Source: a candidate division WOR-3 bacterium
GTDB taxonomy: Bacteria > Hydrothermota > Hydrothermia > B15-G9 > WFZT01
Reading direction: 5' to 3'
NCBI GenBank assembly: GCA_027053075.1
Contig: JALUEE010000078.1
Location: forward strand, 25,189 to 89,188
Length of the DNA stretch: 64,000 nt
Shown: one piece after another, positions 150 through 64,000 of the stretch
How positions within the stretch are numbered: the first letter of the stretch is position 1
Layout of the letters: every line of letters begins with the position of its first letter
Translations under genes and position numbers: made by a program
Notes under the pieces: model-generated
What the model was told of the DNA's origin: nothing
What the model saw: only the letters and a program-made list of their open reading frames with translations
Databases searched by the model: none

Positions 150-190
150 GTGGGGTGCGGATGCGCCCAAAGGGCGCATCCGCACCCCAC
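150..190 (-). terminator. GC-rich hairpin (GTGGGGTGCGGATGCGCCC-AAAG-GGCGCATCCGCACCCCAC) followed on the minus strand by CTTTTAAAA; likely rho-independent terminator of the 212..1849 gene; also a member of the hairpin repeat family
   Basis: Perfect 19-bp inverted repeat with 4-nt loop directly 3' of the minus-strand stop; U-run follows on minus strand. Confidence 0.55.
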
Positions 191-211
191 TCATTGGCTT
201 TTAAATCCTAA

Positions 212-1849
212 TTACTTAACAACCACAAATCTTGATACGACCTCTTTGCTCCCGGCGTTCATCTTCACAAGGTAAACACCTTCAGCGAGATTTGTGGGCA
301 GTGAGACAGCATGGGTGCCAGCTTCAGCTATACCGTTGTAGAGTGTGGAGACTTTTCTACCTGTAATGTCAAATACACTGATGTTCACTTTACCTGCAGT
401 GGGGACAGAGAACGTGAGTCTGGCATCTTTGTTCACAACGCCAGGAACGGTGAGTTTAACATCAACTGCACGATGGTTGTCTTCCTGGACTCCCACGGTG
501 TAGGTTGTACCGTAGAAGTAAACAATGTCAGGAGTATTCGCATCTGTGTAGGAACCCACCACATGGATGTTGTGGTTTGCGCAATACAGTTTTGCAGGCA
601 GCTCAAAGGCCTCCTCTTCCATGGAATCAGGAACTGCCTCGATTGTTGTATCTACCCATGTGGCACCACCATCTGTGGATACAAGCAATCCTATATCAGG
701 CAGTGTGTCTGATCCATGGATGAAAAAGCCTTTGTAAGCAGCAACCAAAACACCACCATCGGTAATGCCAATGGTAGGCTGGGTAGCCACTGTACCACCC
801 TGGCCATCGCCCTCAAGAACAGTTGCGGTCCAGTCGGTCCATGCACCAGGATGACCACCACCTGGAGTGTAGTACCACACATCACCATACTCGTGGTTTC
901 CACTTCCAAACTTCCAGATTATGTGAGGCTTATTGTTTGCATCCAGCACAAAGTCGTAACCATACCACCAACCCTGAGCCGAATCGTATGGGGCTCCACC
1001 TGTGACATTCCAGATAGGAATAGTGTCGACCCATGTCTGTCCACCATCCATAGACTCCATGAATACAGGCGCAATTGTGGCACCATAGCCATAGTCAAAG
1101 AGCCAGTCTGTAATGACAGCTATATATCCATTTGTTCCAATCCTCGGTATCGGTGTGTCATTCCATCCACCTGAGATTGCTGATGTGATGAATGTATCAG
1201 CATTCCATGTGGTACCTCCATCATAGGATGTCCAGTAGTATGTGCTTCCGTCAAAGATATTGGCGGCGAACACTATGATGGTGTCTCCAGATGCGTCAGC
1301 TGAAGGAAGCCAGCAGTTCCACTGCTGAGAATTGGGGAGCTCGACTACGTTGTAAAGACCACTTGGCCAGAGAACATCCCATGCAACTTTCACAGGGCTT
1401 GGTTGATAGGCTCCGTTCACATAAGCTGCCTCATGCCAGAAGAAGAGTGGTCCCTGATGAGCCCAGTGCTCTGGCCAGATAACGCCAGGATAGATCCTTC
1501 TAACTGCGTTAGTACTGAGGTCATGTGTAGTCCAGGTCTGGCCTCCATCAAAGGAAATAGCCACCTTAACATTCTGGAAAATGTTTGCAGGATCTCCAGA
1601 AGGCTCACCGTAAATAACAACAACTGTATCACCGTGAACAGCTATGTTTTTACCAGGTGAACCAAGCAGCGCCCTGATATCAGGTATAGGACCCACCGTA
1701 TCACGAGGCATGAGCTTTGCTGAGGTCGGATTGGTAGACCAGTATCCTTCCAGTTTGCTCAGCGCTTTCCTCTTCATAGAGGTGTTAGCGCTCACAAGCC
1801 CTACTGTTACAAGCAGGGCAACCATTACATTTACAACTCCTTTCTTCAT
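212..1849 (-). CDS. Secreted BNR/Asp-box repeat protein with T9SS C-terminal sorting domain
   Basis: N-terminal signal peptide; repeated S/TxDGGxTW motifs (DGGQTW, DGGTTW, DGGATW); C-terminus ...GVYLVKMNAGSKEVVSRFVVVK typical of T9SS CTD. Confidence 0.7.
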   Translation of the reverse strand: MKKGVVNVMVALLVTVGLVSANTSMKRKALSKLEGYWSTNPTSAKLMPRDTVGPIPDIRALLGSPGKNIAVHGDTVVVIYGEPSGDPANIFQNVKVAISFDGGQTWTTHDLSTNAVRRIYPGVIWPEHWAHQGPLFFWHEAAYVNGAYQPSPVKVAWDVLWPSGLYNVVELPNSQQWNCWLPSADASGDTIIVFAANIFDGSTYYWTSYDGGTTWNADTFITSAISGGWNDTPIPRIGTNGYIAVITDWLFDYGYGATIAPVFMESMDGGQTWVDTIPIWNVTGGAPYDSAQGWWYGYDFVLDANNKPHIIWKFGSGNHEYGDVWYYTPGGGHPGAWTDWTATVLEGDGQGGTVATQPTIGITDGGVLVAAYKGFFIHGSDTLPDIGLLVSTDGGATWVDTTIEAVPDSMEEEAFELPAKLYCANHNIHVVGSYTDANTPDIVYFYGTTYTVGVQEDNHRAVDVKLTVPGVVNKDARLTFSVPTAGKVNISVFDITGRKVSTLYNGIAEAGTHAVSLPTNLAEGVYLVKMNAGSKEVVSRFVVVK

Positions 1850-1865
1850 ACTACACCTCCTTTGT

Positions 1866-2792
1866 TTAATTTGAACCTATTTCCTCGTTAAGCTTATTCA
1901 GTATGATCCAGTAATTATCAGGATCATACGGATCTCCGTTAAATGTCCAGTTAGGATCAATTATCTTAAGCTCCCTGACACAGTTGGCCATAAGGCCACT
2001 CCAGAAGTAGCTTTCAGCAAGCACCAATCTTGTTCCCGTTTCATTTATGTATGGATAATGCACAAACCCTCTGGGCACGCCATGTTTAACAGCAGCATTT
2101 GCATAAGCAATAGCAGTCATGAGATATTTGCCTTCAGTATTGGAAGCAGCAGCAACTGCAGTTCCGATGTGAGCGAACAGATTGACCTGAACAGAATCCG
2201 AGTCTGCGACATTTTTAAATATGAAATAGTTTACCACAAGCGTGTCCTTGATATGTGGCCCCGCAACACTGTCGTTAATAATCTGTGCCGCAATTGTGAT
2301 GGTAGAATCTGTAATTTCCCTCAAAGTCTGATTCACATAGTTGATCGAAGCCGAACTTACACCGATAACAGGTCTATGCTGTAGTTCAACAACTGTAAAT
2401 GTATCCACTGCTCCGGCAACAGTATCAATCTCAAACCAGTAACGATCCGTATCTGATGGAAGAATGATTTCGTGGAAAACCGGCTGAGCCATACTACCGC
2501 CACTCAGGATCATGGCAAAGGAAAAGGCTGACTGTGCAAGGTCAGGCCTGTTCAGAGCAACCTCACTCCATGCGAGACCGAGATGAGCCTCAGGAATGGT
2601 ATTATCCATTCTTATAACTTTCTCAAATTTTGCTTTAGCGGTAGCAAAGTCGAGACTATCGTATCTGCTCCATGCAGTATCGAGAACAGCCTGGGGGTCT
2701 TCTGGTGGGGGAAAAGTGGTTGCATTTTTAACTCCGCATCCCACAGCTATAAAGCTAATTAAAGCCACTGCCAATAAGATCTTCTTCATCAT
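1866..2792 (-). CDS. Hypothetical lipoprotein
   Basis: Signal peptide with lipobox-like LISFIAVGCG; no recognisable catalytic motif. Confidence 0.45.
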   Translation of the reverse strand: MMKKILLAVALISFIAVGCGVKNATTFPPPEDPQAVLDTAWSRYDSLDFATAKAKFEKVIRMDNTIPEAHLGLAWSEVALNRPDLAQSAFSFAMILSGGSMAQPVFHEIILPSDTDRYWFEIDTVAGAVDTFTVVELQHRPVIGVSSASINYVNQTLREITDSTITIAAQIINDSVAGPHIKDTLVVNYFIFKNVADSDSVQVNLFAHIGTAVAAASNTEGKYLMTAIAYANAAVKHGVPRGFVHYPYINETGTRLVLAESYFWSGLMANCVRELKIIDPNWTFNGDPYDPDNYWIILNKLNEEIGSN

Positions 2793-2801
2793 TGTCCTCC
2801 T

Positions 2802-5800: not shown

Positions 5801-6119
5801 ATATCCAGTTAATTCCATCTGAGCTGTTATAGATGTAAGCAGGATTCTGTCCCGGTAATCTCTTCGATCCAATCCATAGTCTATTGTAATTGTTACCAAT
5901 CCTGAATCTGCCAATCTTTATTATAGCAACTCGGTCAGCAGACACAATATAAAAATTGTTTCCTCTGTATCTCACAACCCCAATATCAGGAACAGTATCC
6001 CGGCTCAGGATAAGGCGGAAGTTGTTAACATAAAAACTGATCGTATCACCTACTTCTTTAGCGGGAAGAGTTGATATGAATAAAAGTGAAAGCACTAATA
6101 AAATCTTCTTAAAGCGCAT
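2802..6119 (-). CDS. Large secreted protein (1105 aa) with BNR-like beta-propeller region and T9SS C-terminal sorting domain
   Basis: Signal peptide; SDYGNSW / SPDNGNSW Asp-box motifs; C-terminal ...GVYFIRLKTSMRNVVKKIVFLKY CTD-like tail. Confidence 0.6.
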   Translation of the reverse strand: MRFKKILLVLSLLFISTLPAKEVGDTISFYVNNFRLILSRDTVPDIGVVRYRGNNFYIVSADRVAIIKIGRFRIGNNYNRLWIGSKRLPGQNPAYIYNSSDGINWIWERGLSGMDLKIDRYIRPTGDTVTVADMDVFDFNYVRDSLPAIKAIIFAATSDGLFSTLFTSSPGPWKLEAFADTTVYGIAVNPMTVSFGGRGQVLYAATSYGVYRVETQGFNSPSTDSLLGTLTDTVWTICGDPSDSSRLLIGAVSGIYRWSSNDWEHLNVNFGKVYNIRYIAGSFYVAADSGLFKTSDYGNSWNTVGTFDYPVTDVVIDNGHMYVSLLGGGVMESPDNGNSWNDFSNGLETLRLLGSKNVYTIFNDSTGLYLGCDEGVYHYNETLAKWENVSNGVGSLMTDRTVSTVASVLENDSVSVFDSIISYLHIDPNVLVDVDNDPRVYIILTRLVQTSNATDPTVIPVFGYFDPRDEDLFDNYSTKREVLVVDLSKFISNGSINRSKLQAFMAYLYGRYAVWSVDMQANPAELTGVAAWASYRCGFDFADGVKGGIDYLGNKKYLNSPLLDYTHQWLNSPVAREIDRERMLLWFEYMSQIYGDTVVTKDVLHGGLRGYRSLNEVIKKYSYGKDSLLTFAPKWYLALTFNRTLYLQDSSGSIVDTAFGYAPPMDSIHVKSAAISDIPGSGEQKSSQVMAPSGFAVWRDAIDTITGERFNAKDGDQDYLKIFMVCGTDSVAKVVPLDSLGRFAMTVNDDSCSSFKYLIANLNVSKTIPYYLTEDTTAPQIVGTYALQNPGNPRMIQMYVVGYDKVGSRFYGLMTDVKTPNPIVTFSTLADSSPETRAYNMKLLSSGDSLFNYFVPVLLDLRGDVEVSVRAQDLAGNDASISPDTISVQSISEQGGVYTALGGQVIIEAPANAFPGVTTVLIDKIDKDLAELTYHGASTGMSDVYLIGNNRITSAREITIKIRPMSREAQKVYAYRNGEWEPIKTYYDEESGFYIFRTRKLGAFQLRSGTPERFGFSFAVVNGPIIYSNKNIRLNLSLDRADKVDISLYNTAGRMVKRLVSGKLQAGIHTFDVNTSDIHLTSGVYFIRLKTSMRNVVKKIVFLKY

Positions 6120-6131
6120 GGTGATCCTCCT

Positions 6132-7109
6132 TTATTTTGCAAACACAATTCCTAATCTAACAACATCAGGTAAGTGCCCAAAATCGTTGTAAGAAATATC
6201 AAATCTCTTATTTCCAAGGTTAAATGACGCTCCGGCACCGAATCCACCTTCGTCAAGGTTAAAGTGATACCCCGCTCTCAGAGTCAGGATTTCTACTGGC
6301 TGCATCTCAAAACCGATAGCAAAAGATTCCCTGTTATCCTTGGGATTGATAATTTCCACAGAACCTGTGAGTCTCTTGATTTTATTACCATTCTTTATGA
6401 AATCTCTTGCTAAGCCCAGCCTGAAGGTCAACGGGAGTGAATAACTCTGGTATTTTCTTTTCTCTGTAGTAACCTGGCTTCCTTTCATTATCCATAAATC
6501 ATATTCACCTTTAGGGGACATGTCAGCGCCAAGATTCTGCAAAGACATCGCAACTCTAATATCTTTAAAACCTGTGTAGAAGTAGGTTCCTGCATCTATT
6601 GCAACTGAGTAAGCACTTGTTACATTTCCAAGATTTTCATCAATAAATTTCACAGCAACACCGGCTGCAAATTTATCCGTGTAGAATCTTGAAACGCCAA
6701 ATCCAAGCTGCATTGCAGAATAAGAAAATGTGCCAGTTTCCACAATATTATGATTCTCGTCAAAGGCTACCCCTTCAAATCCTCCCATGTAAATTCCACT
6801 TGCAAAAACGGAGAAAGTACCAATAGGATATTTCGGGAAAATCACAGCAAAGGCCGGAACACGTCCATCTGCAATCCAGTTTGAATAACTCGTAAAGAAT
6901 GCAAACTGTCTCAAATGGGCAATACCTGCTGGATTCCAGAAAATACTCGATGGATCATTTGCAACAGCAACGAATGCGTCTCCCATTCCTGAAGCTCTCG
7001 GGGTAACGCTGATGGACAGGAATTTGGCCCCTGCACTACCCACAGGAACCTGTGAGTACAGGGGAGCGCTCATTAAGGCAATTATTAACAATTTCTTAAG
7101 CATCACCAA
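6132..7109 (-). CDS. PorV/PorQ-like T9SS-associated outer-membrane beta-barrel protein (FadL-like)
   Basis: Signal peptide; N-terminal motif ...GAKFLSISVTPRASGMGDAFVAVANDPSSIFWNPAGIAHL matching the conserved PorV/PorQ N-terminus; alternating beta-strand pattern; C-terminal aromatic residue. Confidence 0.5.
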   Translation of the reverse strand: MVMLKKLLIIALMSAPLYSQVPVGSAGAKFLSISVTPRASGMGDAFVAVANDPSSIFWNPAGIAHLRQFAFFTSYSNWIADGRVPAFAVIFPKYPIGTFSVFASGIYMGGFEGVAFDENHNIVETGTFSYSAMQLGFGVSRFYTDKFAAGVAVKFIDENLGNVTSAYSVAIDAGTYFYTGFKDIRVAMSLQNLGADMSPKGEYDLWIMKGSQVTTEKRKYQSYSLPLTFRLGLARDFIKNGNKIKRLTGSVEIINPKDNRESFAIGFEMQPVEILTLRAGYHFNLDEGGFGAGASFNLGNKRFDISYNDFGHLPDVVRLGIVFAK

Positions 7110-9219: not shown

Positions 9220-12200
9220 TTAAAAACCCTTCAATTTGAATTCAAGACCCAAACGTGTCGTTCTACGTGGATAATAAACTGCAGGATTCTTTACCTCACC
9301 TTCTGGCATATGGAACTGCACGTACCAATCAACATTCTCAAAACGATTCAAGTCTTTCCTGTTTGTCACGTTCAACACATCAACGTAGAATCTGAACTTA
9401 GCCTTGCCTATCTCGAAATTCTTGATGAACTTCATATTAAGCTGCATGTGAGATGGCAATCTTGCCGAATTAATCTTTTCAACAGCATCACGTGGTGTTC
9501 TAATCGGTGGAGTATAAGGATAACCACTGCCATAGGTGAACTGGAACATCAAACTGAAGTTATCAAGATACCTGATATTAGCAAGGCTCTTGTTCTTGGG
9601 GAAAACTACGCCAAAATTGGCCACAAGGCTGTGCCTCTGGTCCCAATCAAGTGGAGACTCTTTGTGAGGCAGAGGATAACCTCTCCACATCCAGTCATAA
9701 GCATTAAATGGAGATGAGAAAGAACCATATGCATACTGCAGCGTGTAATCAATTGATAATGTCAGGAAAGGTAGCACCATTCCACCAGGCCTCTTGGAGA
9801 AAGAGAATTCGATTCCACGAACTGTACCCCAGTCTTCATTTACATAAGTCGAATAATTGGCGCCTGCAATTCCGTATGAGAACTGCTTTAATCTCGACCA
9901 CTTGAGTATGTCTTTATAAAACGCTGTCACGTCTACGACCATCTGATTATTTATAGCATGCTTAAGTCCCAGCTCATAAGATATAGTTTTTTCCGGCTCT
10001 ATATTAGCATTTCCTACAATAGGGAATGCTCCTGAGAATACATAATTACTCAAAATCTGATAAAATGGAGGTATCTGCAGATAATGACCGTAAGTAAAGT
10101 GCAGTACATCCCTGTCACTGATTGGATGTGATACTCCCAACCTTGGACTTATATACCACTTTGAACCAACCTTAACAGGATTCTTCATCATTCTTATGGT
10201 GTGCCACAGTGAATCTGATACAAAAGGATCATTACTGTCGGAAATAGCATATCCGCCAGAGTTGTAATAATCAATTCTGAAGCCCACTTTCGCGATCATT
10301 CCCTCCATCTCAATCTTGTCTCTCAAATAAGCGGCAAATACCCAAGGAACTGCCGGATGATCGTTAAACCAGTTGATAAACGTGTAAGGGTCTCCAGGCC
10401 TGGAGGTCAAATGAGGATTCAAAAGCGTGAGATACACGTTACCACCCGAGGCATAATCTGCACCGTAACGAGTGATGTTGATTCTCTTATACTCCATCCC
10501 TGCGAGGATTTCATGGTGTTTCGTAACCTGACTGGTCAACTTTGTTGTGAACGTGAGATAACTACTGTTTCCATAGTACCACTGGCTACGCTGCCACGTG
10601 TTCATTCCGGGCAGATACTGTCCGCCAACTTTCAACAAAGTATCAATCACAGTAACTATACTATCAGTAAACTCATGCCCTTTAAGAGGCCACCTGAATG
10701 GGAACTCGTAGAAATCATTAGATACCTGGAGCACAGTATCGACATAAGTATTACCGGAATCATCCATGGCTTCTACCACGAGCACCTTCAGGTCAACATT
10801 TGACCTCTGGCCCCATCCCTCCGTATTCAAAACACTGAAAATAGTGTCAACTGTGTCACGGAAAATAGGATCGACAATAAACATCTCCTCAGCTTCAGGC
10901 CACCACTTGGGACCTGAACCTATAGATGGATAAAGGGCCTGTACCTTCGTGTCCCACCAGTAATACGGAATCTCAACATAACCCGCCGACCAGTTAATCT
11001 CAGGGTGTACAGTATCTCCATTGGGAGATACATAACTGTATAGTGAATCAATATTTATCCACTCCCAGTGTGTATGGACTGAGTCTATCCTACCGTGAGT
11101 TCTAAATGTATCAATCACAAGTTTTTTAAAGTAATCAAGGTCTACCTCCACAAAACCATCTTTATCTCGGTCCGCAAAGTCATCCACTCCATCTCTGTCT
11201 ACATCTTCCATTACATTGGACTCAAGCTTTCTGCGGAAGTAACCAAGTCTCAGCTCCCAGTATGTTCTTGATGAAAATATCTTATTGATACCAAAGATAA
11301 ACTGGAGCTGGTTATCGTCATTGTATGAAGTGTGATCGAGTGCAAGCCTCCAGTATGGAGAATATCCTCTCGTGTGTGCCTTTGCCCAGAACCCACTTGT
11401 AAAGAACTTCCAGGAAGCGAGGGGATATGTAATCTTCCACTGGAAATTTTTCCTCACATTCCAGAATTTAGGGTCAGGAGATACAGGGAATCTGCCCTTA
11501 TTGGTCTGATATTGCCCAGAAATGAAGAATTTAGCACCACTCCTATTTCTGGGATTTATTGGGCCACCAAAGCTAAACTGAGTGATGTAATCCCTTGAAT
11601 GATGTCTTCCAACAGGACTGTTGAAATCAAGATTCTTACCGGTCAGAAAGTCATAATATTCGTCGCCCCAGTTTCTATCCAGAAAACCGTATATTTTGTC
11701 TCCAAGGAAAGAAAAGTCAGATGTAACGGTCTCAAGTGTGAATCCATATTTAGGACCACCTTCTTTTGTAACAATATTAATAGTACCGGATGAGACCGTT
11801 CCCTGATCCACATCAAATCCACCTTTCGATATTGATGTTTCTTCGATGGAGAGGAGGGGAATATTCGCAAATGTATTATTACTATAAGGATCGCGAATTT
11901 CTACACCATCAATAACGTATACCACTTCGTCAGGACGACCACCTCTAACATGAAGACCTCCTCTTGCAATAACTCCGGCCTGCTGGGATACCACCTGAGC
12001 AACATTTGTAACAGGCAGCTCGGCCAATTGCGAGGATTTTACTATGTCCACACTTGCAGTCAGGTCTTTTTTAATGATGGGTTCCTTTGCAACTGCGACA
12101 ACCTCTTTTGTCACAAGAGTTGCAGGCTCAAGTTTAAAATTGACCTCTGTGGTTCTATCTACATCAACTGTTACATTCTCTACCTTCATCGTTTTGTAAC

Positions 12201-14013: not shown

Positions 14014-14649
14014 TCAGGCTTCTTGTTTAATAATCTCTTTCTCGAGGAGATACTCTATAAGTTCATTAGCGGCCTCTTCTGTGGCCCTTGAATATCCATT
14101 AATCTTGGACTGGAAAATTGCATAGAAAAGAGCGACAGGCGCCGCGATCAAAAGTCCGGTAGCCGTTGTGATCAATGCCTCTGAAATACCAGAGGCAACA
14201 AGCGTAGGCTCCACTTCTCCGGCAAGAGCAATTGCCTGGAACGCCTTAATCATTCCTGTAACTGTTCCCAGGAATCCGATGATCGGCGCAAGTGTAGCCG
14301 TAGCTGAAAGATAAATCATACCTCTGTCAAGAAATCCCATCTCTGAAGAGGCCTTCGCTGCCATTGCCTCTTCAACAACTGTCCTTCCTCTGTGGACCTT
14401 CTCAAGTCCGGCAAGAAGGACCTTTGCAATAGGCTTCTTATTTTTCTGCAAATACTCTATTGCAGCATCCAGACCCTCTTCCTCAATGAGGGTCGTGACC
14501 TTTTCCACAAGCTTGCGCGGGTTCGTGCTCGCCTTCACAAGCAGTGTAATGATTCTCTCTATGATGATTGCGGTTCCAAGGATAGCTAACGCGAGGAGCA
14601 ACCACATCATTGAACCGCCCTTATTGAAGTATTCAACAAGTCCTTGCAT
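14014..14649 (-). CDS. exbB: MotA/TolQ/ExbB proton-channel protein
   Basis: 211 aa, three TM segments, ...ATLAPIIGFLGTVTGMIKAF... motif typical of ExbB/TolQ. Confidence 0.8.
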   Translation of the reverse strand: MQGLVEYFNKGGSMMWLLLALAILGTAIIIERIITLLVKASTNPRKLVEKVTTLIEEEGLDAAIEYLQKNKKPIAKVLLAGLEKVHRGRTVVEEAMAAKASSEMGFLDRGMIYLSATATLAPIIGFLGTVTGMIKAFQAIALAGEVEPTLVASGISEALITTATGLLIAAPVALFYAIFQSKINGYSRATEEAANELIEYLLEKEIIKQEA

Positions 14650-14687
14650 TATTTAACCTCCCTTGTTTTTGTTTTTCGCAATAGTCC

Positions 14688-14716
14688 ATTTTAAATTCAT
14701 AAAACCCAATTGTCAA
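14688..14716 (-). promoter_or_regulatory. Putative sigma-70 promoter for the exbB operon: TTGACA-N17-TAAAAT on minus strand
   Basis: -35 TTGACA (rc of 14711..14716), 17-nt spacer, -10 TAAAAT (rc of 14688..14693); GGGAGG SD 8 nt before exbB ATG. Confidence 0.4.
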
Positions 14717-14724
14717 GCAAAAAA

Positions 14725-15525: not shown

Positions 15526-15584
15526 TCAACTATTATGGAATCCTCACCTTCCTTTTTCAACTTAGAGGGTATAGAATCAATCCC

Positions 15585-19850: not shown

Positions 19851-19851
19851 T

Positions 19852-47701: not shown

Positions 47702-47735
47702 CCTCTCCCCGCAAAAAAATCTATGCGGGGAGAGG
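47702..47735. repeat. Hairpin CCTCTCCCCGC-(11 nt)-GCGGGGAGAGG
   Basis: 11-bp arms with longer loop. Confidence 0.55.
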
Positions 47736-48875: not shown

Positions 48876-48977
48876 GCATAAACTTTACATTAAGGATTGA
48901 ATTATTTCAACGAGAAATTGAGCGCGTTCGAAAAATTTCAACTTAATTTGAAATTTTAAGAGGAATTCACTCACATA

Positions 48978-49017
48978 TCTCCTTCCCCCACGCACGAAGT
49001 GTGTGGGGGGAAGGAGA
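48978..49017. repeat. Hairpin TCTCCTTCCCCCACGCAC-GAAG-TGTGTGGGGGGAAGGAGA (one mismatch)
   Basis: CACGCAC-core family member. Confidence 0.7.
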
Positions 49018-49133
49018 GGATATTATCAGCTCTATTTACAAGTGTGAGCAAACTTCTGGAACGCCGAGAATAATGCACCTTTCCAAATTTTCTAATTTTC
49101 AAGCAAATCTCCCTGCCTCAAGTTAAAAAGAGT

Positions 49134-51298: not shown

Positions 51299-52255
51299 CT
51301 ATAAATCAGCGAGGTGTTTTCTAAGTTTTTCTGCGGCTGTTTCAGGCGAAACGGTGTTAATGTAATATCCGGTTCCTACCTCAAAGCCAGCAAGCCCTAC
51401 AAGTCTCGGTAAAATCTCTATATGCCAGTGAAAGTCATGGTCTTCAATTGAGTGAATTATGAGATTGTAAGAAAATCCGTTGAGTTCCATGCGGTAAGAT
51501 TTGAGAAGCTTGAGTAGAAATTTGGCGAGGTATTTGAGGCGTTCATCACTTGCCTCTCCGAAGCTCGACTCGTGCTCCGATGGGACAATCCAGGATTCGT
51601 AGGAAAATCTTGAGCCAAAGGGAGCTATTGCCACAAATCCAGATTCGTTCATTATCAGGCGTTCTTTGGTTCTCACTTCAATATCCAGCACTCTGCATAG
51701 GGCTTTCCTCCTCTTCATGGCCTCCAATTCCCTTTTTATATGCTCGGGAATAGCCCTAAGAGCGAGTATCTGGGTGTGCGGATGCGGCAGAGATGCCCCT
51801 GCATATTTCCCCCAATTGCGAAAGATGTGCACATATCTGATACCGGGTTTGCCGATAAGCGCCCGGTATCGCTCTCTATAAACCCTTAAAATTTCAAAAA
51901 GATGCTCCTCGCTTTGATCTGCGAGGTCTTTAAAGTGGTCTGGAGTTTCGATTACGACCTCATGATATCCTGTAGCGAGCTCTCCCCTGTAAAACTTGTG
52001 CCTGAAGAACTTCTCATTGTGTTCCTTTGAAACCACTGCAGGGAATTTGTTTGGCACCACCCTGACAATCCACTTGCCGTTTCTTTCAACTCTCATAATT
52101 TCCGGCGGTGTCCTTTCTTCTCGTCCGGGGCAGAAGGGGCATGTGTCCACTGTGTGAGTATATTCATCTGGAGAAAACGCTATCGGTCTGAAACCGCGCT
52201 CAGGAGAGATTATAACTGTAGAACCTGTGACAGGGTCGTGTCTGATTTCAGGCAT
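51299..52255 (-). CDS. GalT-like HIT-family nucleotidyltransferase (second paralog)
   Basis: RHDPVTGSTVIIS, CPFCPGREERTPPEI, NKFPAV, HEVVIETPDH, GASLPHPHTQILA. Confidence 0.7.
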   Translation of the reverse strand: MPEIRHDPVTGSTVIISPERGFRPIAFSPDEYTHTVDTCPFCPGREERTPPEIMRVERNGKWIVRVVPNKFPAVVSKEHNEKFFRHKFYRGELATGYHEVVIETPDHFKDLADQSEEHLFEILRVYRERYRALIGKPGIRYVHIFRNWGKYAGASLPHPHTQILALRAIPEHIKRELEAMKRRKALCRVLDIEVRTKERLIMNESGFVAIAPFGSRFSYESWIVPSEHESSFGEASDERLKYLAKFLLKLLKSYRMELNGFSYNLIIHSIEDHDFHWHIEILPRLVGLAGFEVGTGYYINTVSPETAAEKLRKHLADL

Positions 52256-54638: not shown

Positions 54639-54782
54639 TTTCTCTCGCTCCAGGGGAAACGTTGAAAATAAATGTTAATCACTGGCAGTTAGATTAATCA
54701 AGTATTTTATGCGTGAATCCTACTTTCTTGCCGTTATCCATGCGGTATTTAAAAACTTTGAAGAAGTCAGTCATGTGTTTTT

Positions 54783-54819
54783 CCTGGGGGGCCACGCACT
54801 TCGTGCGTGGCCCCCCAGG
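54783..54819. repeat. Hairpin CCTGGGGGGCCACGCAC-TTC-GTGCGTGGCCCCCCAGG
   Basis: Perfect 17-bp arms, CACGCAC core. Confidence 0.75.
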
Positions 54820-54924
54820 AAAAACAATTCCTTTATAAGATGCATCTAATGCTTTGAATCTCCCATCGTGCTTTTACAACTCTATTTTGTCAAATTCCTC
54901 ATGCAGGTGTAAAATTTATATGAA

Positions 54925-57090: not shown

Positions 57091-57139
57091 ATTAATGGGG
57101 GTGGTGGGGCACGCACTTCGTGCGTGCCCCACCCATTAA
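57091..57139. repeat. Hairpin ATTAATGGGGGTGGTGGGGCACGCAC-TTC-GTGCGTGCCCCACCCATTAAT (core arms interrupted by a 3-nt bulge in the 5' arm)
   Basis: Longest copy of the CACGCAC-core family. Confidence 0.75.
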
Positions 57140-57332: not shown

Positions 57333-58289
57333 ATGTTTACTATCCGTCCTTTACAATCTCCCAGAACAGGAGTGGTTAGTATGAATTTTGCTGGACTGCC
57401 CTTGGGGATCAGGGAAAAAGTTTTAAGGTGCCTCGAGATGTTTAATAAAGGATTCCCTATTCTAATCAGAGGAGAGACAGGGGTGGGGAAAAGTTTCCTC
57501 GCCCGGGAAATTCATAGAGCATCCAGATGGAAAGATGGAGAATTTGTACGAGTTGATCTTGCATCTCTTGAAAATGACCTCTTTGAATCGCAGCTGTTTG
57601 GATACGATAGGGGAACTTTCACCGGCGGATTAATCGAAGGTAAAGTAGGACTGCTCGATCTGGCGCAGGGTGGAACTGTTTTCTTTGATGAAATTGGGAA
57701 TCTGGACCTCCGATACCAGAAAAAGTTGCTTATTTTCCTGGACGAGAGGAGATACAGAAGGGTGGGAGGTAAAAATTATATCCATCTAAACGCAGGTATA
57801 ATTTTTGCGACAAACATATATATAAAGGGTGCCCTGACCGAGGGGAAATTGAGGGAAGACCTGTACCACAGGATTAAAACATGTGAGATAGAACTGCCTC
57901 CTCTTCGGGCAAGACTCTTTGTGTTAGAGGAAATCATAGAGTTATTGATAAAGATTAAGAATCTCAAACCATTGAAGTTTACCCCGGATGCAATCGAAAA
58001 GATGAAAGAGTATTCCTGGCCCGGCAATTTGAGGGAGCTATTGAATTTTCTTGTGGAATTGAACTCATTGGGGAAGCATACAATAGAGATATCAGACCTA
58101 CCAGAGAACGTAAGGAATCACAATAAAGCGGATAGCAATGGAAGGATTAGACCTGAGCTGATAATAAATGAGCTGAGTAAAACAGGAGGGAATGTAAAAG
58201 AAACGGCAAGCCGGCTGGGGGTTTCGAGGCAATACCTATATAAGATGTTCCGCGCTTACAGGATAAATCCCGCGGATTATAGACGGTAA
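57333..58289 (+). CDS. Sigma-54 activator-like AAA+ protein lacking an N-terminal sensor/receiver domain (PspF-like architecture), with GTFTGG instead of GAFTGA
   Basis: ILIRGETGVGKSFLAREIH Walker A; ESQLFGYDRGTFTGG; GTVFFDEIGNLDL Walker B; C-terminal HTH ...VKETASRLGVSRQYLYKMFRAY. Confidence 0.7.
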   Translation: MFTIRPLQSPRTGVVSMNFAGLPLGIREKVLRCLEMFNKGFPILIRGETGVGKSFLAREIHRASRWKDGEFVRVDLASLENDLFESQLFGYDRGTFTGGLIEGKVGLLDLAQGGTVFFDEIGNLDLRYQKKLLIFLDERRYRRVGGKNYIHLNAGIIFATNIYIKGALTEGKLREDLYHRIKTCEIELPPLRARLFVLEEIIELLIKIKNLKPLKFTPDAIEKMKEYSWPGNLRELLNFLVELNSLGKHTIEISDLPENVRNHNKADSNGRIRPELIINELSKTGGNVKETASRLGVSRQYLYKMFRAYRINPADYRR

Positions 58290-58510
58290 GTTTTTATTTT
58301 TATTTATGAAGAATTCTCTTCCGGACACGATGGAGCCGGAGGCTGCCAAAATTTTGCGATTAAAAGGTGTAAACAGGGTAGTTGACACAGCAAAACCCGC
58401 ATGAAGACTGAGAAAATTCCACAAATAGCATAAAAATACTGGAGAAATATAAAACATGATGATAGTATCTCTAACTTTGTAGACTCTTTGTAACAATATA
58501 TAATTCCCAA

Positions 58511-59470
58511 ATGGATATTGTTGTCAGTGTAAAAAATCTGGAAAAAGTATATAAGAGGCAGCGTCGAGAATCTGGTCTAAAGAACGTAATAAAGGATTTT
58601 TTTAGAAGGCAATATACACAGATACAAGCGCTTAAAAAAGTAAGTTTTACTGTAAGAAAAGGAGAAATCATAGGTTATATCGGACCCAACGGAGCAGGTA
58701 AAACTACTACCCTAAAAATACTATCGGGTATACTTTATCCATCTGGAGGGGATGTGGAGGTTCTTGGTTTTACTCCCTGGAAACGTAAAAGGGAGTTTCT
58801 GAAAAAAATAACCCTTATAATGGGACAAAAAAATCAATTATGGTGGGATATTCCGGCAATGGATAGTTTTTTACTCTTCAAAGAGATATATGAGGTACCT
58901 GATCATATTTTCAAAAAGCAAATTAATACTTTATTGGATATGCTTGATGCTGGAAAACTTGTCAATTATCCTGTCAGACATCTTTCTATGGGAGAGAGGA
59001 TGAAGATGGAGATTGTTGCCGCTTTAATTCATAACCCGGACATAATATTTCTTGACGAACCGACTATTGGACTGGACGTGATGTCTCAAACTTCTATAAG
59101 AGAGTTTTTATCCGCTTATAACAAGGAATTTCAGAAAACCATAATCCTGACAAGTTACTACATGAAGGATATTGAAGAATTATCCAATAGGGTGATCTTT
59201 ATAATGAATGGAGAAATTATTTATGATGGATCTATAGATAAATTAATCTCCAGAACTCTTTCTCACGAATATGTTGAAGTAACGTTTGGTACAGGTAAAG
59301 GATTTGTGAAAAAATCTTATAAAGTTAAAAAAGAAGAAATGCCAGATTTTCTAAGGAAAATTTTAACAAGTAACAACGGTTCTATAGTTGAGATTAGGCA
59401 TAGAAAACCTGACCTTGAAGAAGTTGCTCGTATTATTATGGCCTCTAAGGGGATTAAGAAAGATGAGTAA
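58511..59470 (+). CDS. ABC transporter ATP-binding protein
   Basis: Walker A GPNGAGKTTTLKILSG; signature LSMGERMKMEIVAAL; Walker B IIFLDEPTIGLD. Confidence 0.85.
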   Translation: MDIVVSVKNLEKVYKRQRRESGLKNVIKDFFRRQYTQIQALKKVSFTVRKGEIIGYIGPNGAGKTTTLKILSGILYPSGGDVEVLGFTPWKRKREFLKKITLIMGQKNQLWWDIPAMDSFLLFKEIYEVPDHIFKKQINTLLDMLDAGKLVNYPVRHLSMGERMKMEIVAALIHNPDIIFLDEPTIGLDVMSQTSIREFLSAYNKEFQKTIILTSYYMKDIEELSNRVIFIMNGEIIYDGSIDKLISRTLSHEYVEVTFGTGKGFVKKSYKVKKEEMPDFLRKILTSNNGSIVEIRHRKPDLEEVARIIMASKGIKKDE

Positions 59471-60245
59471 ATATGTGAGATTAATTTACAATTCTATGGC
59501 GGAAACCCTAACTTATAGAGCAAATCTTGTTATCAGTTTTGCTGTTATAGCTATTCCTTTTATTATCGCTGTTATTTTCTGGAGGGGAGTATTCTTTGCC
59601 AATAATTCTGTAGCAGATTACTCGCTTAAAGACATAATCACTTATTATTTTATAGTATTGTTTGCGCAGGATTTTACCTACCCTGTGTTAAATTATGATA
59701 TTGTTATGGATATTAAAAACGGGCGGTTAAATTTTTTACTGATAAAACCTGTTAATTATTTCTGGTATACATTTTTCTTAAGACTCGGGAGTAATATAGT
59801 TTATTTGAGTGTTGTCACGGCTTTTTTGATAATATATGTACTCATTTTCGCTAAGTTTCTGATACTGAATCCAAATAAGATACCCGCATTTCTATTATCT
59901 TTTTTGCTTTCTTACATATTAGGTGCACTTATTAGTTTCTTTTTTAGTATTTTTACTCTGTTTTTAGAAAACTTTGCAGGGCTTGAAAGTTTTGTAAACT
60001 TTATTGTTCCAGTTTTTTCTGGAATTTTGTTACCAATTAGTATGCTCCCGGGTTTATTATATAAGATATCCTTATACTTGCCCTTGAGATTACTTGTTTT
60101 TTATCCAGTAGAGATATATCTCGGAAAGAAAGATCTGAATAAAGGTATAATATATTCGTACCTTTTTTGGATATTGCTTTTCGCTATAATCAATTTATTT
60201 GTCTGGAGGGAGGGTTTAAAAAAATATAGAGCAGTGGGTGGATAA
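59463..60245 (+). CDS. ABC-2 family transporter permease (ABC2_membrane_6-like)
   Basis: 6 predicted TM; motif IKNGRLNFLLIKPVNYFWY (GxLDxxLxKP-type); 8-nt overlap with ATPase gene. Confidence 0.6.
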   Translation: MSKYVRLIYNSMAETLTYRANLVISFAVIAIPFIIAVIFWRGVFFANNSVADYSLKDIITYYFIVLFAQDFTYPVLNYDIVMDIKNGRLNFLLIKPVNYFWYTFFLRLGSNIVYLSVVTAFLIIYVLIFAKFLILNPNKIPAFLLSFLLSYILGALISFFFSIFTLFLENFAGLESFVNFIVPVFSGILLPISMLPGLLYKISLYLPLRLLVFYPVEIYLGKKDLNKGIIYSYLFWILLFAIINLFVWREGLKKYRAVGG

Positions 60246-60248
60246 CAG

Positions 60249-61037
60249 ATGAGGAAGTATCTAAAAATATTCAAATTACAACTGGTAAATCAAATTGTAT
60301 CCTACAGTATTTTTAAGGGCGACGCTATTCTGCTTATAGTATCTGATACTTTTGGGCTGATTTTTTCGGTGATATTTTTCAAAGCACTTTACAACAACAT
60401 AGATTCTATTGGTAGCTGGAACTATGAATCAACACTTTTATTGGTAGGTATTGCAAATTTTGCGGATTCTTTTTATAGGTTATTATTTGAGAAAAATGTG
60501 CGAAGGATTTCTGCTTTTGTAAGAAAAGGTACATTGGATTACGCGCTAATTAAGCCTATTGATGTACAATTTTTTCTTAGTATAGGAAGATTCAAATTCC
60601 AGACTTTATCTTCCCTGCTTTTCTCGATTTTGGTTATCCTTCACGCTATGAAATTATTACAACTTACAATTAATGTTTTTAACGTAATTGTATTTATCAT
60701 TCTTTTGATAACAGGTGTGTCTTTGCGTTATATATTCAGTTTATATTCTTCTATCATTTCTTTTTACACTACCAGAGTTTCTGCTTTCTATTCTTTACAA
60801 ATGGAGATTTTCAAATACGCTGAATATCCCTTTGATGTGTTTAGAGGATTAATTGAAAGGATATTTTTCACGTTTATATTTCCAATTGTAATAATTGCCA
60901 ATGCCCCGGCTATAGTTATTATACAAAATAGAAACTATTGGGTGATTTTAAGCGTCTTTATCAGTGTAGTACACTTCTATTTATCTCGAATTTTGCTTTT
61001 TGCTTCAATAAATAAATACCAGAGTGCAGGAGGTTGA
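60249..61037 (+). CDS. ABC-2 family transporter permease (second paralogous subunit)
   Basis: 6 predicted TM; motif VRKGTLDYALIKPIDVQFF paralleling upstream permease. Confidence 0.6.
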   Translation: MRKYLKIFKLQLVNQIVSYSIFKGDAILLIVSDTFGLIFSVIFFKALYNNIDSIGSWNYESTLLLVGIANFADSFYRLLFEKNVRRISAFVRKGTLDYALIKPIDVQFFLSIGRFKFQTLSSLLFSILVILHAMKLLQLTINVFNVIVFIILLITGVSLRYIFSLYSSIISFYTTRVSAFYSLQMEIFKYAEYPFDVFRGLIERIFFTFIFPIVIIANAPAIVIIQNRNYWVILSVFISVVHFYLSRILLFASINKYQSAGG

Positions 61038-61038
61038 T

Positions 61039-62901
61039 ATGTTTGTGTTGTTGATCATTGCGCTAAGCTTTAACAATTTTCACCGTTTCTTCCCGAATAG
61101 TGGGGAAATGATGGAAAACCGGACATTTGCGACTGTGGAACTGGTTAATGACACACTCGTGATTAATGCAAAATGCCACTCTAAGTATGGAATTTACACG
61201 GAATCTCTTGACAGGGATGAAATAAAGCCCGGTGAAGATTTCTTCGGTATTGTAATCACACAGGACAGGAATACGGGTTATTTCTTCCTGATAAATGCAA
61301 ATGGTATAAAAAGCGACGGAGTAATCGTCCATAAAAGCACAAAAAGAAAAGCCTGGGATTATGTCTGGAATGTGAGCTCAAAGAGGTTTGATGATTCTTT
61401 ATGGGTTGCAAATGTCAGGATTCCTCTTGATCGACTAAACCTTGAATACAAAGACAGTCTCATCCTGTACGTCAACCTCGTCAGGAGCGCAAAGCTCGGA
61501 GGCGTAGGCAGGTATGAGTCAGGGACTTATGTGCCCATTGTGGGCTCAAACTTCTATGATCTCACTTTTACTCAGAGGGTTGCTCTCCCGGTTGAGAAGA
61601 GAAAAGCAGGGACAAAGTTATTTATTGAGCCCTATGTGGCGGTTTACCGTGACAGTGGAGGTGTTTTCTTTAAAGAAGGGGAGGACATAACTTTAAAGAA
61701 TCAGACTGGAGAGCTTGCGATAACAGTGAATCCGGACTACGCAACAGTGGAAAGTGATGTGGAACGATTTAATCTCGACAAATTACAGATGCTCTACTAT
61801 CCGGAAAAGCGTCCCTTTTTCATGCATGGTTTTGAGCTATGGAACCTGCCCTTTATGGTACTTTACACGAGGAGCCTGACGGAGATAGATGCAGGGGTAA
61901 AGGCAAATGTTAAGAGAGAAAATATGAGCTTCAATGCATTCCTTATTGAGGAAGGGGACACACTGTCAGGCTATTTTAGAAGGAAACGTCTCACCGGTGG
62001 AGTCAGGGGATTATACTCAACCGAATACGGGGACTTTGGGCTCTTTTATCTAAGTAGCAGGGACAGTTTTGAAGCAAAAGGTCTTGATGCAATGTTTTAC
62101 CTTCCCTTTCAGCTCAGAGTAAATATGCAATATACACTGGACCGTTCGTCAAAGAGTGATTTCTTTTTACACATTTACCGGTTTGTTGAATCCGGAGTGG
62201 ATGTGGAAGCCGGGTTGGAGAGACTTGATAGTGTGAGAATAAATACAGCTTACATACCATATCCCTTATACACTCGCTCCGCATGGCTTTATCTCACCTA
62301 CAATTTTTCAAGGGATAGCAAAATCTTACCCAATGGCTACTTAAGTATAGGTGGGACACATGGAGAATACCTAAACGGAAAACTCTATGAAAATAGTGGT
62401 TCAATAGTGGCCTCAGCTGGAATTCTCAGTAATCTACGGGTGGTATATAACCTTATACCCTAGAGAAGGAACGCTGGCAATACGATATATGATAACTTGT
62501 TGCATTACTTTGAGATAGACTACCAGCCCCTGACACATCACTACATTGAAATTGAGACACAGTTTGGTCGTTACTTTGGAGGGGTCCAAAAATACTACTC
62601 TGCAGAATATTCGTACAAAGGTGAAAAGCTCTTGCTCGCATCTGGATACGGCTACGACAGCGAGCCTTTTTACACGCAGAAGCGCATATATTTGAAGGCA
62701 AAATACAATCTTACCAATGACTTAAGGGCAAGACTCTTTGTGCAGCATTCTGAGATTTCAAAAAGGAATGAGGTAAACTTTTTGACGGAATACCGCATAA
62801 AGCCTGGAACTTTCCTTTATTTTGTGATAAACAGGACCGAAATAAATGGCTCCCCGCAGGTTAATTTCATGGTTAAGTTTAAAAGTTATGTGGGGATATA
62901 G
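61039..62901 (+). pseudogene. DUF5916-like outer-membrane protein paralog interrupted by a single in-frame TAG (62461..62463); both halves in the same frame
   Basis: AGGAGG SD before ATG 61039; ORFs 61024..62463 and 62497..62901 share a frame; combined length about 620 aa, matching the 644-aa paralog at 49134..51068; shared YPEKRPFF motif. Confidence 0.4.
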
Positions 62902-63008
62902 ATACAATAATAAATCCTCATTTCTAATACCATAATGTCTTTAAATTAACCGGGAATATTTCCATAATCAGCACATAACGTGGAACATCAAATTCATCTC
63001 ATTGAATT

Positions 63009-63040
63009 CCTCCCCCACGCACTCTTGTGCGTGGGGGAGG
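63009..63040. repeat. Hairpin CCTCCCCCACGCAC-TCTT-GTGCGTGGGGGAGG
   Basis: CACGCAC-core family. Confidence 0.7.
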
Positions 63041-63087
63041 TTGGGAGGGGGTAACCTTGATATAAATTTAAAGAGGCCCCTTCCCTA

Positions 63088-63118
63088 CCTTCCCCACAAG
63101 CAAAGCTTGTGGGGAAGG
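63088..63118. repeat. Hairpin CCTTCCCCACAAGC-AAA-GCTTGTGGGGAAGG
   Basis: Perfect 14-bp arms. Confidence 0.65.
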
Positions 63119-63236
63119 AGATTCTTAAAAAATTTAAAAGTGCATCATTTAATCGGTTTTAGTATAATAAAATGTGTGGTTCCACATTCACCATGGTAAA
63201 TTTGATTTAAGTCGATATTAATTCCCTGGGGGATTT

Positions 63237-64000
63237 ATGGTGCTGATACTTTTATTGGCAGGAATTTTGGTTAGAGTAAATGTTGTTGATTCTTCGTTGA
63301 GGCATATAAAAGATGCTGAGATAGTGATAAAATCCGATGGAGAGGTTAAGAGGGTGGGGGAGGGCGACTTCGTCGCCCTCCCCCACCCTCTTAATATTTT
63401 CTACATCTCCGCTCCCGGCTGGCACTCCATTCAGGATACACTCTACCTGACCAAAGACACCACTCTAACCTTCATCCTTACCCCAATCGAATACAAAACT
63501 GAAGAAGTTGAAGTTATCTCTTCACCATTACCATCAGGAGATGTGAAAATTAAGAGAGAATCTATTATTGAAACACCATCTCCCATAGCTCCTGATCCCT
63601 TAAGGCCCATATTGAATCTACCGTTTGTTGAGCCTGGAAATGAGCTCTTACCTTTTTCATTCTATGTAAAAGGTGCTGTACCAGGTGAAAACTCTGCCTT
63701 TATCGAAGGTTACCCCCTTGTTTTCCCTTTCCATTTTGGCTTTACAACCGCTGTTCCTGTCTATTCTTTAAAATCTTATGACTTTTACACGGTCTATATT
63801 CCACCTGAACTTTCCCTGAAGGTGTCTTCGGCCATCAATTTTCATTTAAGGAATGATAGGACAGATGAACTCTTTGTTGATCCAACCTCATCTATCAATT
63901 TTGTCCATTCGAGAAAGGACTTTTTAGCTTCAATAAGATTCACATCCATGTCGCTTCCGGTCTATTTAATGACCAAAAATATTCTCTACTATTTTGGAGA
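63237..64000 (+). CDS. TonB-dependent receptor, N-terminal part (runs off window end), carrying an in-frame hairpin repeat
   Basis: VRVNVVDSS...IKSDGEVK...TLYLTKDTTLTFILTP CarbopepD_reg-like; TEEVEVISS plug start; repeat at 63349..63391 encodes KRVGEGDFVALPHPL. Confidence 0.55.
   Translation, partial: MVLILLLAGILVRVNVVDSSLRHIKDAEIVIKSDGEVKRVGEGDFVALPHPLNIFYISAPGWHSIQDTLYLTKDTTLTFILTPIEYKTEEVEVISSPLPSGDVKIKRESIIETPSPIAPDPLRPILNLPFVEPGNELLPFSFYVKGAVPGENSAFIEGYPLVFPFHFGFTTAVPVYSLKSYDFYTVYIPPELSLKVSSAINFHLRNDRTDELFVDPTSSINFVHSRKDFLASIRFTSMSLPVYLMTKNILYYFG
63349..63391. repeat. Hairpin AGAGGGTGGGGGAGGGCGAC-TTC-GTCGCCCTCCCCCACCCTCT inside the TBDR coding sequence
   Basis: Perfect 20-bp arms; in frame within ORF. 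Confidence 0.7.

Follow-up and report, generated by a model that had tools for sequence, protein, structure and literature searches.

GC-rich hairpins in a candidate division WOR-3 genome: probable cores of miniature transposable elements and single-copy hairpins at gene ends

As a kind, MITEs (miniature inverted-repeat transposable elements) are well known, and one of the closest described counterparts of the elements reported here is MITEAba12 of Acinetobacter (paired with ISAba12), a 113-bp non-coding MITE of IS5-family origin with 9-bp target site duplications (TSDs) and many copies between genes (PMC6382973). Its identity to the presumed parent insertion sequence (IS) is confined to the terminal inverted repeats (TIRs); its AT content is 78%, no terminator is predicted in it, and it is reported to carry outward promoters (PMC6382973). 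Our study concerns a stretch of 64,000 nucleotides (the window) from contig JALUEE010000078.1 of a candidate division WOR-3 bacterium, in which perfect GC-rich hairpins are scattered within and between genes. We give a probability of about 0.8 to the reading that these hairpins form two classes, namely the cores of MITEs moved by a DDE transposase and single-copy host hairpins at gene ends; the MITEs belong to a new family, from an uncultured phylum that has been little studied. They resemble MITEAba12 in being short (about 123 versus 113 bp) and non-coding, in their TIRs of about 16-17 bp, their 9-bp TSDs and their apparent use of a DDE transposase in trans, in an identity to the presumed parent that is limited to the TIRs, and in their many intergenic copies. 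They differ from it by a perfect GC-rich hairpin of 13-16 bp accompanied by an A-run and a T-run, by subfamilies with swapped cores, and by a phasing with -35 hexamers.

Other known systems share part of these features. The end of IS903 (IS5 family, IS903 group), a sequence that was verified, is GGCTTTGTTGAATAAATC and matches the MITE TIR GAGCCTGTTCGAAAAATC at 12 of 18 positions; IS903 makes a 9-bp target duplication, and its transposase is of the DDE_Tnp_1 type, as the WOR-3 remnant described below appears to be, the WOR-3 side being known from its ends and a C-terminal fragment alone. The host phylum of IS903 is different from that of the WOR-3 elements, and we know of no report that IS903 targets the edge of a -35 hexamer. 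Rickettsia palindromic elements are palindromic repeats that lie in frame in protein-coding genes and are kept as extra residues; a 36-residue insert in the aroB of our window is similar, being an in-frame palindromic repeat in a conserved gene that is kept in two species, whereas the WOR-3 repeat is a MITE with TIRs and TSDs, mostly intergenic, with one in-frame case verified.

Repetitive extragenic palindromic sequences (REPs) and the bacterial interspersed mosaic elements that they build, which are associated with REP-associated tyrosine transposases (RAYTs), are likewise GC-rich intergenic palindromes, often near gene ends and able to stabilise or terminate transcripts. They are, however, imperfect repeated palindromes with a conserved 5' tetranucleotide and no TSD, whereas the WOR-3 repeats have TIRs and TSDs and the WOR-3 gene-end hairpins are unique in sequence. 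These gene-end hairpins are like intrinsic terminators, including the forms without a U-tail, in being GC-rich stem-loops a few nucleotides past a stop codon, often between convergent genes; they are unlike the usual ones in that their stems are exceptionally long, being perfect over 12-24 bp, their triloops are limited to RAA/TTY, and T-rich tails are found on about half of them.

The hairpins of the window and the sister genome

A Python scan of the window for perfect inverted repeats with a stem of at least 8 bp and a loop of 3-4 nt identified 26 hairpins, and 19 of these have stems of at least 60% GC, compared with 0.43 on average, and never more than 2, in 30 first-order Markov simulations of the window. 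This bears out an earlier note on the same DNA, which had described many GC-rich palindromes here, and the coordinates that it gave (149, 17436, 21178, 21282, 21572, 26118, 28485, 31059, 31836, 34996, 36975, 42695, 47430, 47607, 48984, 54776, 57103, 63009, 63088 and 63346) all check out, the hairpin at 48984 being imperfect. The stems are 62-92% GC, against a window mean of 43%. The loops had been called tetraloop-like; the palindromes in fact close down to triloops, which are closed by a C:G pair, and the centres are CAAAG, CGAAG, CTTTG or CTTCG in 17 of the 19 GC-rich hairpins. It was also an overstatement that most copies share a G6-CACGCAC arm: only five (17436, 21178, 26118, 48984 and 63009) carry a G5-6-CACG(C/G)AC arm, and three more (36975, 54776 and 57103) have the inner CACGCAC alone. 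With up to two mismatches, CCCCCCACGCAC occurs 12 times against 2.07 expected, a number reached in 0 of 100 shuffles; the pattern GGGGGGCACGCAC was discarded as a rendering of the hairpin motif, as it did not match the motif described.

Mobile-element cores account for about half (about nine) of the window hairpins, and most of the others are gene-end hairpins. The idea of a single family in which structure is conserved over sequence had therefore merged two classes with opposite genomic positions; what survives of it is that subfamilies sharing their TIRs carry differing hairpins. One covarying structural RNA family is ruled out, the stems being unrelated and the two classes lying on opposite sides of genes. 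Separating mobile from gene-end hairpins spares the annotation a single "REP family" label and accounts for the 36-residue insert of AroB. Pfam scans of the main open reading frames (ORFs) of the window found no transposase or RAYT gene, in agreement with the earlier note as far as these ORFs go; at gathering thresholds no Rfam family matched anywhere in the window, and a scan of the window for tRNA and tmRNA found nothing.

The genes of the window are typical of the Fibrobacteres-Chlorobi-Bacteroidetes (FCB) group, with type IX secretion sorting domains, a TonB/ExbB/ExbD cluster, a GH57 amylase and sigma-54 activators (Pfam), and its aroK-aroB fusion protein is identical to one in NCBI assembly GCA_015489415.1. 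We scanned a genome collection holding one genome per species for CCCCCACGSAC-N3-4-GTSCGTGGGGG, which gave at least 78 loci. Among the loci listed, 59 come from one metagenome-assembled genome (MAG), "candidate division WOR-3 bacterium T2_metabat2_scaf2bin.142" (JALXCE01), and the family is thus not confined to the window; the other matches listed are one in another WOR-3 MAG, one in an unclassified MAG of the same study, and 17 scattered single hits in high-GC or unrelated genomes. Window positions 26693-34348 are 90-95% identical to a contig of JALXCE01 (L057), and positions 14333-21336 are 92-95% identical to another (L080). This identity of 90-95% at the DNA level makes JALXCE01 a sister species that can be used for comparisons.

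A MITE family, its subfamilies and its proposed transposase

The alignment of 70 copies on their hairpins revealed conserved flanks, made of common arms and TIRs, that reach far beyond the composite unit of about 60 bp that had been described previously; that unit is the inner part of an element of 108-125 bp with terminal inverted repeats. The element, which we call MITE-A, is about 123 bp long and has the order TSD, GAGCCTGTTCGAAAAATCTCAAATTCTTTGATTTTTGAGGAAAAATTTACCCCCCACCTTGTTCC, hairpin, GGAGAGGAGGGGGGAATTTTCGAACAAGCTC, TSD, and most of the 70 aligned copies carry its TIRs of about 17 bp (consensus GAGCCTGTTCGAAAAAT, complement AATTTTCGAACAAGCTC). An nhmmer profile detected 93 distinct copies in the window and the 61 WOR-3 loci. 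Perfect TSDs of 7-11 bp, with a mode of 9-10 bp, flank 25 of the 44 full-length copies, those of the others being imperfect. Elements of type A measure 108-125 bp, those of type B 179 bp and those of type C about 210-260 bp, and none has an ORF of its own. When folded, MITE-A forms a single long hairpin that bears a side arm (-69.8 kcal/mol, z=-8.7, for the copy at 21151-21273). The copies of the window are the following:

21151-21273, minus strand: full-length MITE-A of 123 bp with its hairpin at 21178-21212 (nhmmer profile positions 1-123, E=1.8e-33)
21142-21150 and 21274-21282: TSD of the copy at 21151-21273, the 9-bp ATGCCCTTT on both sides
26057-26181, plus strand: MITE-A of a diverged subfamily with its hairpin at 26118-26152 (profile E=1.8e-27)
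26049-26056 and 26182-26189: TSD of the copy at 26057-26181, the 8-bp CAAAGGGT
48920-49032, plus strand: degenerate MITE-A with an imperfect hairpin at 48984-49010 and a TIR match at 48920-48936 (profile E=8e-19)
17404-17511, plus strand: MITE-A of about 108 nt with its hairpin at 17436-17468, in frame in the shikimate kinase/3-dehydroquinate synthase gene (16903-18546, minus strand; profile matches 17411-17493 and 17408-17503)
63003-63130, plus strand: remnant, downstream of gene 62497-62901, that has an A-like hairpin at 63009-63040 and a C-like one at 63088-63118 (profile hits and sequence)

The mobility of MITE-A can be seen directly in an empty site and in reciprocal insertions in the sister genome. 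At the orthologue of 21151-21273, the sister contig L080 holds a single ATGCCCTTT and no element. Conversely, beside the orthologue of hairpin 28485, L057 carries a 360-bp insertion with a TSD, consisting of a MITE with a second element nested within it, and about 400 bp of A- and B-type pieces (L080 11641-12034) part aroKB from aroQ, two genes that overlap by 4 nt in the window (16903-16906). A second element of about 240 bp, with inverted ends of its own (GGCTGACGTCACCCACG...), is nested at the same internal position of MITE-A in at least four sister loci (L057 at about 5830-6160, L010, L039 and L063).

The same kind of TIR also bounds elements with other hairpins, which in the window are represented by one complete B-type element, a solo half and a C-type repeat:

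34936-35114, minus strand: B-type MITE of 179 bp, with ends GGCGTGTTCAAAAAT and AATTTTCGAACACGTT of the same kind as the MITE-A TIRs (TIR search and sequence)
47426-47480, plus strand: solo half of a B-type element, consisting of hairpin 47430-47456 and an adjoining GGGGAGAATGGGGAAA end motif
47544-47754, plus strand: C-type repeat with a hairpin at 47607-47639 and a second one near 47699-47742 (nhmmer profile)

The core of the B-type element, CCCTCCCTTCCC-AAA-GGGAAGGGAGGG at 34996-35022, differs from that of type A. Hairpins of family B (34996 and 47430; CCCTCC(C)TTCCC...) recur in the sister MAG, where a conserved TTTTCCCATTCCACCCC motif adjoins them and the modules often come as an inverted pair, and one such double module (L006 3093-3379) sits between two TIRs of the MITE-A type. 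Units of type C, about 210 bp long and sometimes clustered, are found in L010, L071, L052, L009 and other loci with E down to 1e-38 in nhmmer, where the profile strayed into C-rich arms belonging to family A and the top hits alone were used; in L009 3944-4165 a C-type unit is bounded by the common TIRs. Thus, a single transposase system appears to be responsible for moving several elements whose main difference is the GC-rich hairpin they carry: subfamilies A, B and C keep their TIRs while carrying unrelated perfect GC-rich hairpins. That common TIRs enclose differing hairpins which resemble the gene-end hairpins of the host suggests modular exchange of cargo or capture of terminators. The 800-bp gap between the convergent genes at window positions 47115-47901 is full of B- and C-type fragments, with CCCATTC...CCCC motifs and at least three hairpins.

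The source of the transposase is indicated by two remnants. In L001, an open frame that ends in ...MYKKRYIVEQVIGKVKNAYG..., the Y-2-R-3-E-6-K signature of IS4/IS5-type DDE transposases, comes after an orphan MITE TIR, in the opposite strand, and the contig ends inside the IS. This frame appears to be the C-terminus of a DDE_Tnp_1 transposase and carries YKKRYIVEQVIGKVK; the match of this C-terminal fragment to Pfam PF01609 has E=8e-5 and 22.9 bits, just short of the cutoff of 23, as is to be expected of a fragment. When the fragment was used in a protein search, the sole relative recovered was a 120-residue ORF on a metagenome contig of 1.5 kb (L081), where an element of about 500 bp has both TIRs and a decayed copy of the same end of the transposase gene. 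Because the same TIRs bound two remnants of its gene, we propose that a cut-and-paste DDE transposase of IS4/IS5 type (DDE_Tnp_1) would mobilise the MITEs in trans; an intact parent IS would be bounded by GAGCCTGTTCGAAAA. The ends of the parent IS in L001 and L081 have no GC-rich hairpin, and the core is therefore cargo rather than a feature of the transposase ends.

Insertion at promoter edges and hairpins at gene ends

Many MITE-A copies are placed in a fixed register to sequences that resemble promoters. In 30 of 68 copies, TTGAC starts 9-10 nt beyond an element end, where the background frequency predicts about 0.75% per end, and position-specific counts give a T-T-G-A-C-A signal that is stronger at the short-arm end. 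On our reading of the flanks, a TAnnnT hexamer follows most of these sites at a distance of 16-18 nt, as in TTGACA-N18-TATAAT, and judged by these hexamers they look like real sigma-70 promoters; among the loci (L001-L078), examples of insertion at the -35 edge are L049 2932, L052 6361 and L012 3889. The three intact copies of the window (21151-21273, 26057-26181 and 48920-49032) obey the same -35 register and are neighboured by the following sites:

21104-21150, minus strand: promoter-like TCCAAC-16-TAAAAT, then the ATG of gene 20688-21104; adjoins the copy at 21151-21273
From 26190 (26182-26217), plus strand: promoter-like TTTAAA-16-TATAAT for gene 26240, also found by a scan; adjoins the copy at 26057-26181
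48875-48919, minus strand: promoter-like TTGAAA-17-TAAAGT, then the ATG of gene 47901-48875; 9 nt from the end of the copy at 48920-49032

The -10-like hexamers lie 2 and 9 nt 5' of the ATG in genes 47901-48875 (TAAAGT-TT-ATG) and 20688-21104 (TAAAAT-N9-ATG), and this spacing suggests that their mRNAs are leaderless or nearly so.

The register of TTGAC equals the length of the duplication; therefore, selection for harmless sites would not suffice alone, and target choice of some form is likely. Family A would integrate with its target duplication abutting the TT of a TTGACA -35 hexamer, so that the element would end up between the terminator of the upstream gene and the promoter of the downstream gene; the transposase might read TTGAC itself or recognise RNA polymerase or a sigma factor bound at the promoter. 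If the phasing does reflect target choice, it would be a case of bacterial promoter-edge targeting, and it would provide a ready marker of promoters in a lineage without genetics. A narrow literature search found no earlier report of -35-targeted insertion or of MITEs in WOR-3.

The extended core of MITE-A consists of an A-run, a stem of about 30 bp that is mostly GC, and a T-run, and reads alike on both strands; on paper, this is the layout of a bidirectional terminator. Such a core may insulate the promoter from read-through and in this way make insertions tolerable; among functional readings this putative role is the one we favour, and we place its chances close to even or a little below. 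With the odds more clearly against it, we tentatively propose that the MITE and its parent IS could constitute a promoter-targeting transposon, the transposase setting its staggered cut so that the duplicated 9-10 bp stop right at the TT of a sigma-70 -35 hexamer, that delivers a bidirectional terminator as a mobile insulator, its subfamilies arising by exchange of hairpin cargo and possibly by capture of host terminators.

The genomic contexts of the two classes were compared by pooling all GC-rich hairpins from the window and from the WOR-3 loci over a simple ORF map. MITE-A cores have a median distance of 94 nt from the facing start codon, with 19 in divergent, 26 in co-directional and 4 in convergent contexts. 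The non-MITE hairpins, on the other side of genes, have a median distance of 12 nt from the facing stop codon, and 27 of 35 are within 50 nt of it (12 convergent, 20 co-directional and 3 divergent); the previous claim that most copies are not at terminator positions is consequently wrong for the hairpins that are not repeated. Six of these have no second copy in the window or the loci, other than orthologues:

149-191, minus strand: hairpin with a 20-bp stem, 20 nt past the stop of gene 212-1849, terminator-like
21282-21324, no strand assigned: hairpin with a 20-bp stem, kept in the sister about 70 nt past the gltX stop
28485-28517, no strand assigned: hairpin between convergent genes, 10 nt past the stop of 26240-28474, with a T-run on the minus strand
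31059-31087, minus strand: hairpin 12 nt past the stop of gene 31100-31774, kept in the sister
31836-31868, minus strand: hairpin 3 nt past the stop of gene 31872-32285, kept in the sister with one mismatch
42695-42721, minus strand: hairpin 6 nt past the stop of the tricorn/S41-type protease gene 42728-45778, in a convergent context

Orthologues of 28485, 31059, 31836 and 21282 are kept in the sister genome. At 28485 the stem is kept there and the loop is TTC, versus AAA in the window, while at 21282 the two genomes differ by a single compensated change from C:G to T:A. Because of their position and conservation, the six hairpins, 3-20 nt past stop codons, would act as factor-independent terminators or protectors of 3' ends. 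A 26-nt fragment of a MITE-A arm at 31803-31828 adjoins hairpin 31836.

Hairpin 21282 looks misplaced in the window, where it lies between divergent genes, whereas it follows gltX in the sister genome. The synteny between window and sister stops within about 12 nt of it (window 21324-21340 versus L080 at about 7343); past this point gltX is found in the sister, and 300 bp of repeat-like DNA and a GH57 gene are found in the window. The stop in synteny therefore marks a rearrangement breakpoint beside a terminator hairpin flanked by element ends.

Maintenance of the stems and competing explanations

The copy at 17404-17511 shows that a MITE-A can be kept within a gene. It encodes a 36-residue insert, TFSNKLEDGAPLPTSPHGLRPWGEESGGGNSFDHGD, between the two (N and C) domains of 3-dehydroquinate synthase. 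Only the window protein and its 93%-identical orthologue have this insert, which 8 of 8 other aligned homologues lack. From the open reading frame in both species it follows that the insertion is older than their split and tolerated. The orthologous copies (L080 at about 11040-11140) are about 97% identical except for an exact inversion of the loop between TTC and GAA. That the copy keeps its stem where a terminator would be harmful is one sign that variation that preserves structure need not mean selection on an RNA fold.

Across 63 oriented copies, 95.9% of stem cells are paired and 8 of 16 pairs changed on both sides, values reached in 0 of 500 shuffles; the search pattern had fixed the inner 11 bp in the primary copies, a caveat that does not extend to the outer pairs or to secondary copies. 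Paired changes of the arms include CCGCC/GGCGG (L068), CTTCC/GGAAG (L051) and ACGGAC/GTCCGT (the aroB copy), the counts of C and G match between arms (5 with 5, or 6 with 6), and some copies (L045, L044 and L051) are symmetric beyond the stem. The orientation of the loop is independent of that of MITE-A (TTT 26, AAA 22, GAA 12 and TTC 5). Intrastrand template switching in quasi-palindromes yields loop inversions and symmetric arm changes, and in both classes of hairpin such switching would help to keep stems perfect and invert loops. Because loops flip between orthologues and changes are symmetric in both arms, the stems are probably kept perfect in part by a process at the DNA level and not by selection alone. 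Loop inversions and symmetric arm changes, even in a coding gene, provide a natural record of hairpin-templated mutation, here in a presumably thermophilic genome.

Five hairpins of the window fit neither class cleanly:

36975-37007, no strand assigned: solo hairpin with a CACGCAC core, between the divergent plsY (minus strand) and LEA_2 (plus strand) genes, 18 nt upstream of TTGAAA-18-TATACT, a site for plsY
54776-54826, no strand assigned: solo palindrome, CACGCAC at its core and its arms 24 bp long, between the divergent fabH and AAA ATPase genes
57103-57133, no strand assigned: solo hairpin with a CACGCAC core, 230 nt past a VWA gene, with a sigma-54 activator gene 200 nt further on and TTGACT 17 nt downstream
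21572-21592, no strand assigned: short hairpin CCCTCCCGC-AAA-GCGGGAGGG upstream of the GH57 gene, resembling the second hairpin of C-type units, with a TIR-like AAGCTCGTTTGAAAAATC nearby at 21328
63346-63394, plus strand: perfect palindrome with 23-bp arms, inside an ORF with its start at 63237 and its end beyond the window

The hairpins at 36975, 54776 and 57103, which lie upstream of promoters, may be relics of elements. A homologue search for the ORF that holds 63346 gave no match.

Several points weigh against the division into MITE cores and gene-end hairpins, or against the roles proposed for them. Besides these five hairpins, of which 54776 has a T-run on its 5' side and an A-run on its 3' side, the reverse of a terminator, a T-rich tail (at least four T in the first 8 nt) follows only about half of the gene-end hairpins, and a simple terminator scan flags just two of them in 20-40 kb (28485, on the minus strand, and 31059), while 31836 and 42695 fail it. 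The sister-MAG loci were chosen for a perfect hairpin, so that the copy density and the invariance of the inner 11-bp stem are biased by selection. The association with -35 hexamers could partly represent the survival of harmless insertions, although the exact register of 9-10 nt counters this as the sole cause. Finally, no intact autonomous element was found: the loci and the protein search gave two remnants only, and a metagenome protein scan and a metagenome DNA scan gave nothing; since copies of an IS usually break MAG assemblies, its absence from these finds is unsurprising.

Three other explanations were considered. Every hairpin could belong to one functional class, selected at the RNA level as a terminator or 3'-end stabiliser, with the MITEs as mere vehicles that captured host terminators. 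A common architecture of perfect GC stem and C-RAA-G centre, the latter in 47 of 79 sampled hairpins outside MITE-A, is in accordance with this, as are the MITE subfamilies with common TIRs and unrelated cores, the landing of MITEs beside terminators, the extended MITE-A stem with its A-run and T-run on both strands, and the paired changes in stems. MITE cores, however, lie upstream of genes and not after them; the orientation of their loops is random with respect to both transcription and the element, so that no strand-specific RNA loop is selected; and the aroB copy keeps a perfect stem where termination would do harm. We consider this explanation unlikely, while giving it real weight. It is markedly less probable that the hairpins are sites acting at the DNA level, such as cruciforms, binding sites of a host factor, or replication or recombination signals, unrelated to transcription or transposition. 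The long perfect palindromes 54776 and 63346, whose flanks extend the palindrome and which have no terminator tails, would suit such sites, and so would the break in sister synteny right beside hairpin 21282 and the occurrence of loop inversions; but the stems are too diverse for a single binding protein, their tight spacing of 1-20 nt past stop codons points to transcripts, and transposition explains the repeated hairpins.

The earlier note had also called the hairpins REP/MITE-like. The MITE half of this description holds in the strict sense for about half of them; the REP/RAYT half, by which all hairpins would be REP-type elements spread by a RAYT (an IS200-like tyrosine transposase) encoded elsewhere in the genome, is at variance with their TIRs, TSDs and DDE remnant, and a tyrosine transposase is not required. 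The hairpins are indeed GC-rich, intergenic and numerous, their loop flips indicate that hairpins form in DNA, and C-GAA-G is a very stable DNA triloop, known from d(GCGAAGC) mini-hairpins. The repeated copies, on the other hand, have 17-bp TIRs and target duplications of 8-11 bp, which Y1 transposases do not make, and their TIRs bound remnants of DDE_Tnp_1, so that for these copies REP/RAYT is contradicted. The stems have no conserved tetranucleotide beside them, nor do they form units of a tetranucleotide plus an imperfect palindrome; the non-MITE hairpins are single-copy and unrelated in sequence; and the Pfam scans gave no RAYT among the window ORFs covered. As an account of all hairpins, it is very improbable.

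Other features of the window are of separate interest. A segment at 58001-62000, spanning an ABC-2 transporter operon and a DUF5916-like gene, has a GC content of 34-37%, compared with about 43% elsewhere, and may have been acquired horizontally. A 152-residue protein encoded at 40972-41430 (plus strand) matches the Prefoldin subunit family (PF02996, E=1.8e-22), which is known mainly from archaea and eukaryotes and is unusual for a bacterium. The window also contains two paralogous GalT-like (DUF4921/DUF4931) genes at 23697-24731 and 51299-52255, and two acyl-CoA dehydrogenase genes at 24653-25921 and 35154-36299.

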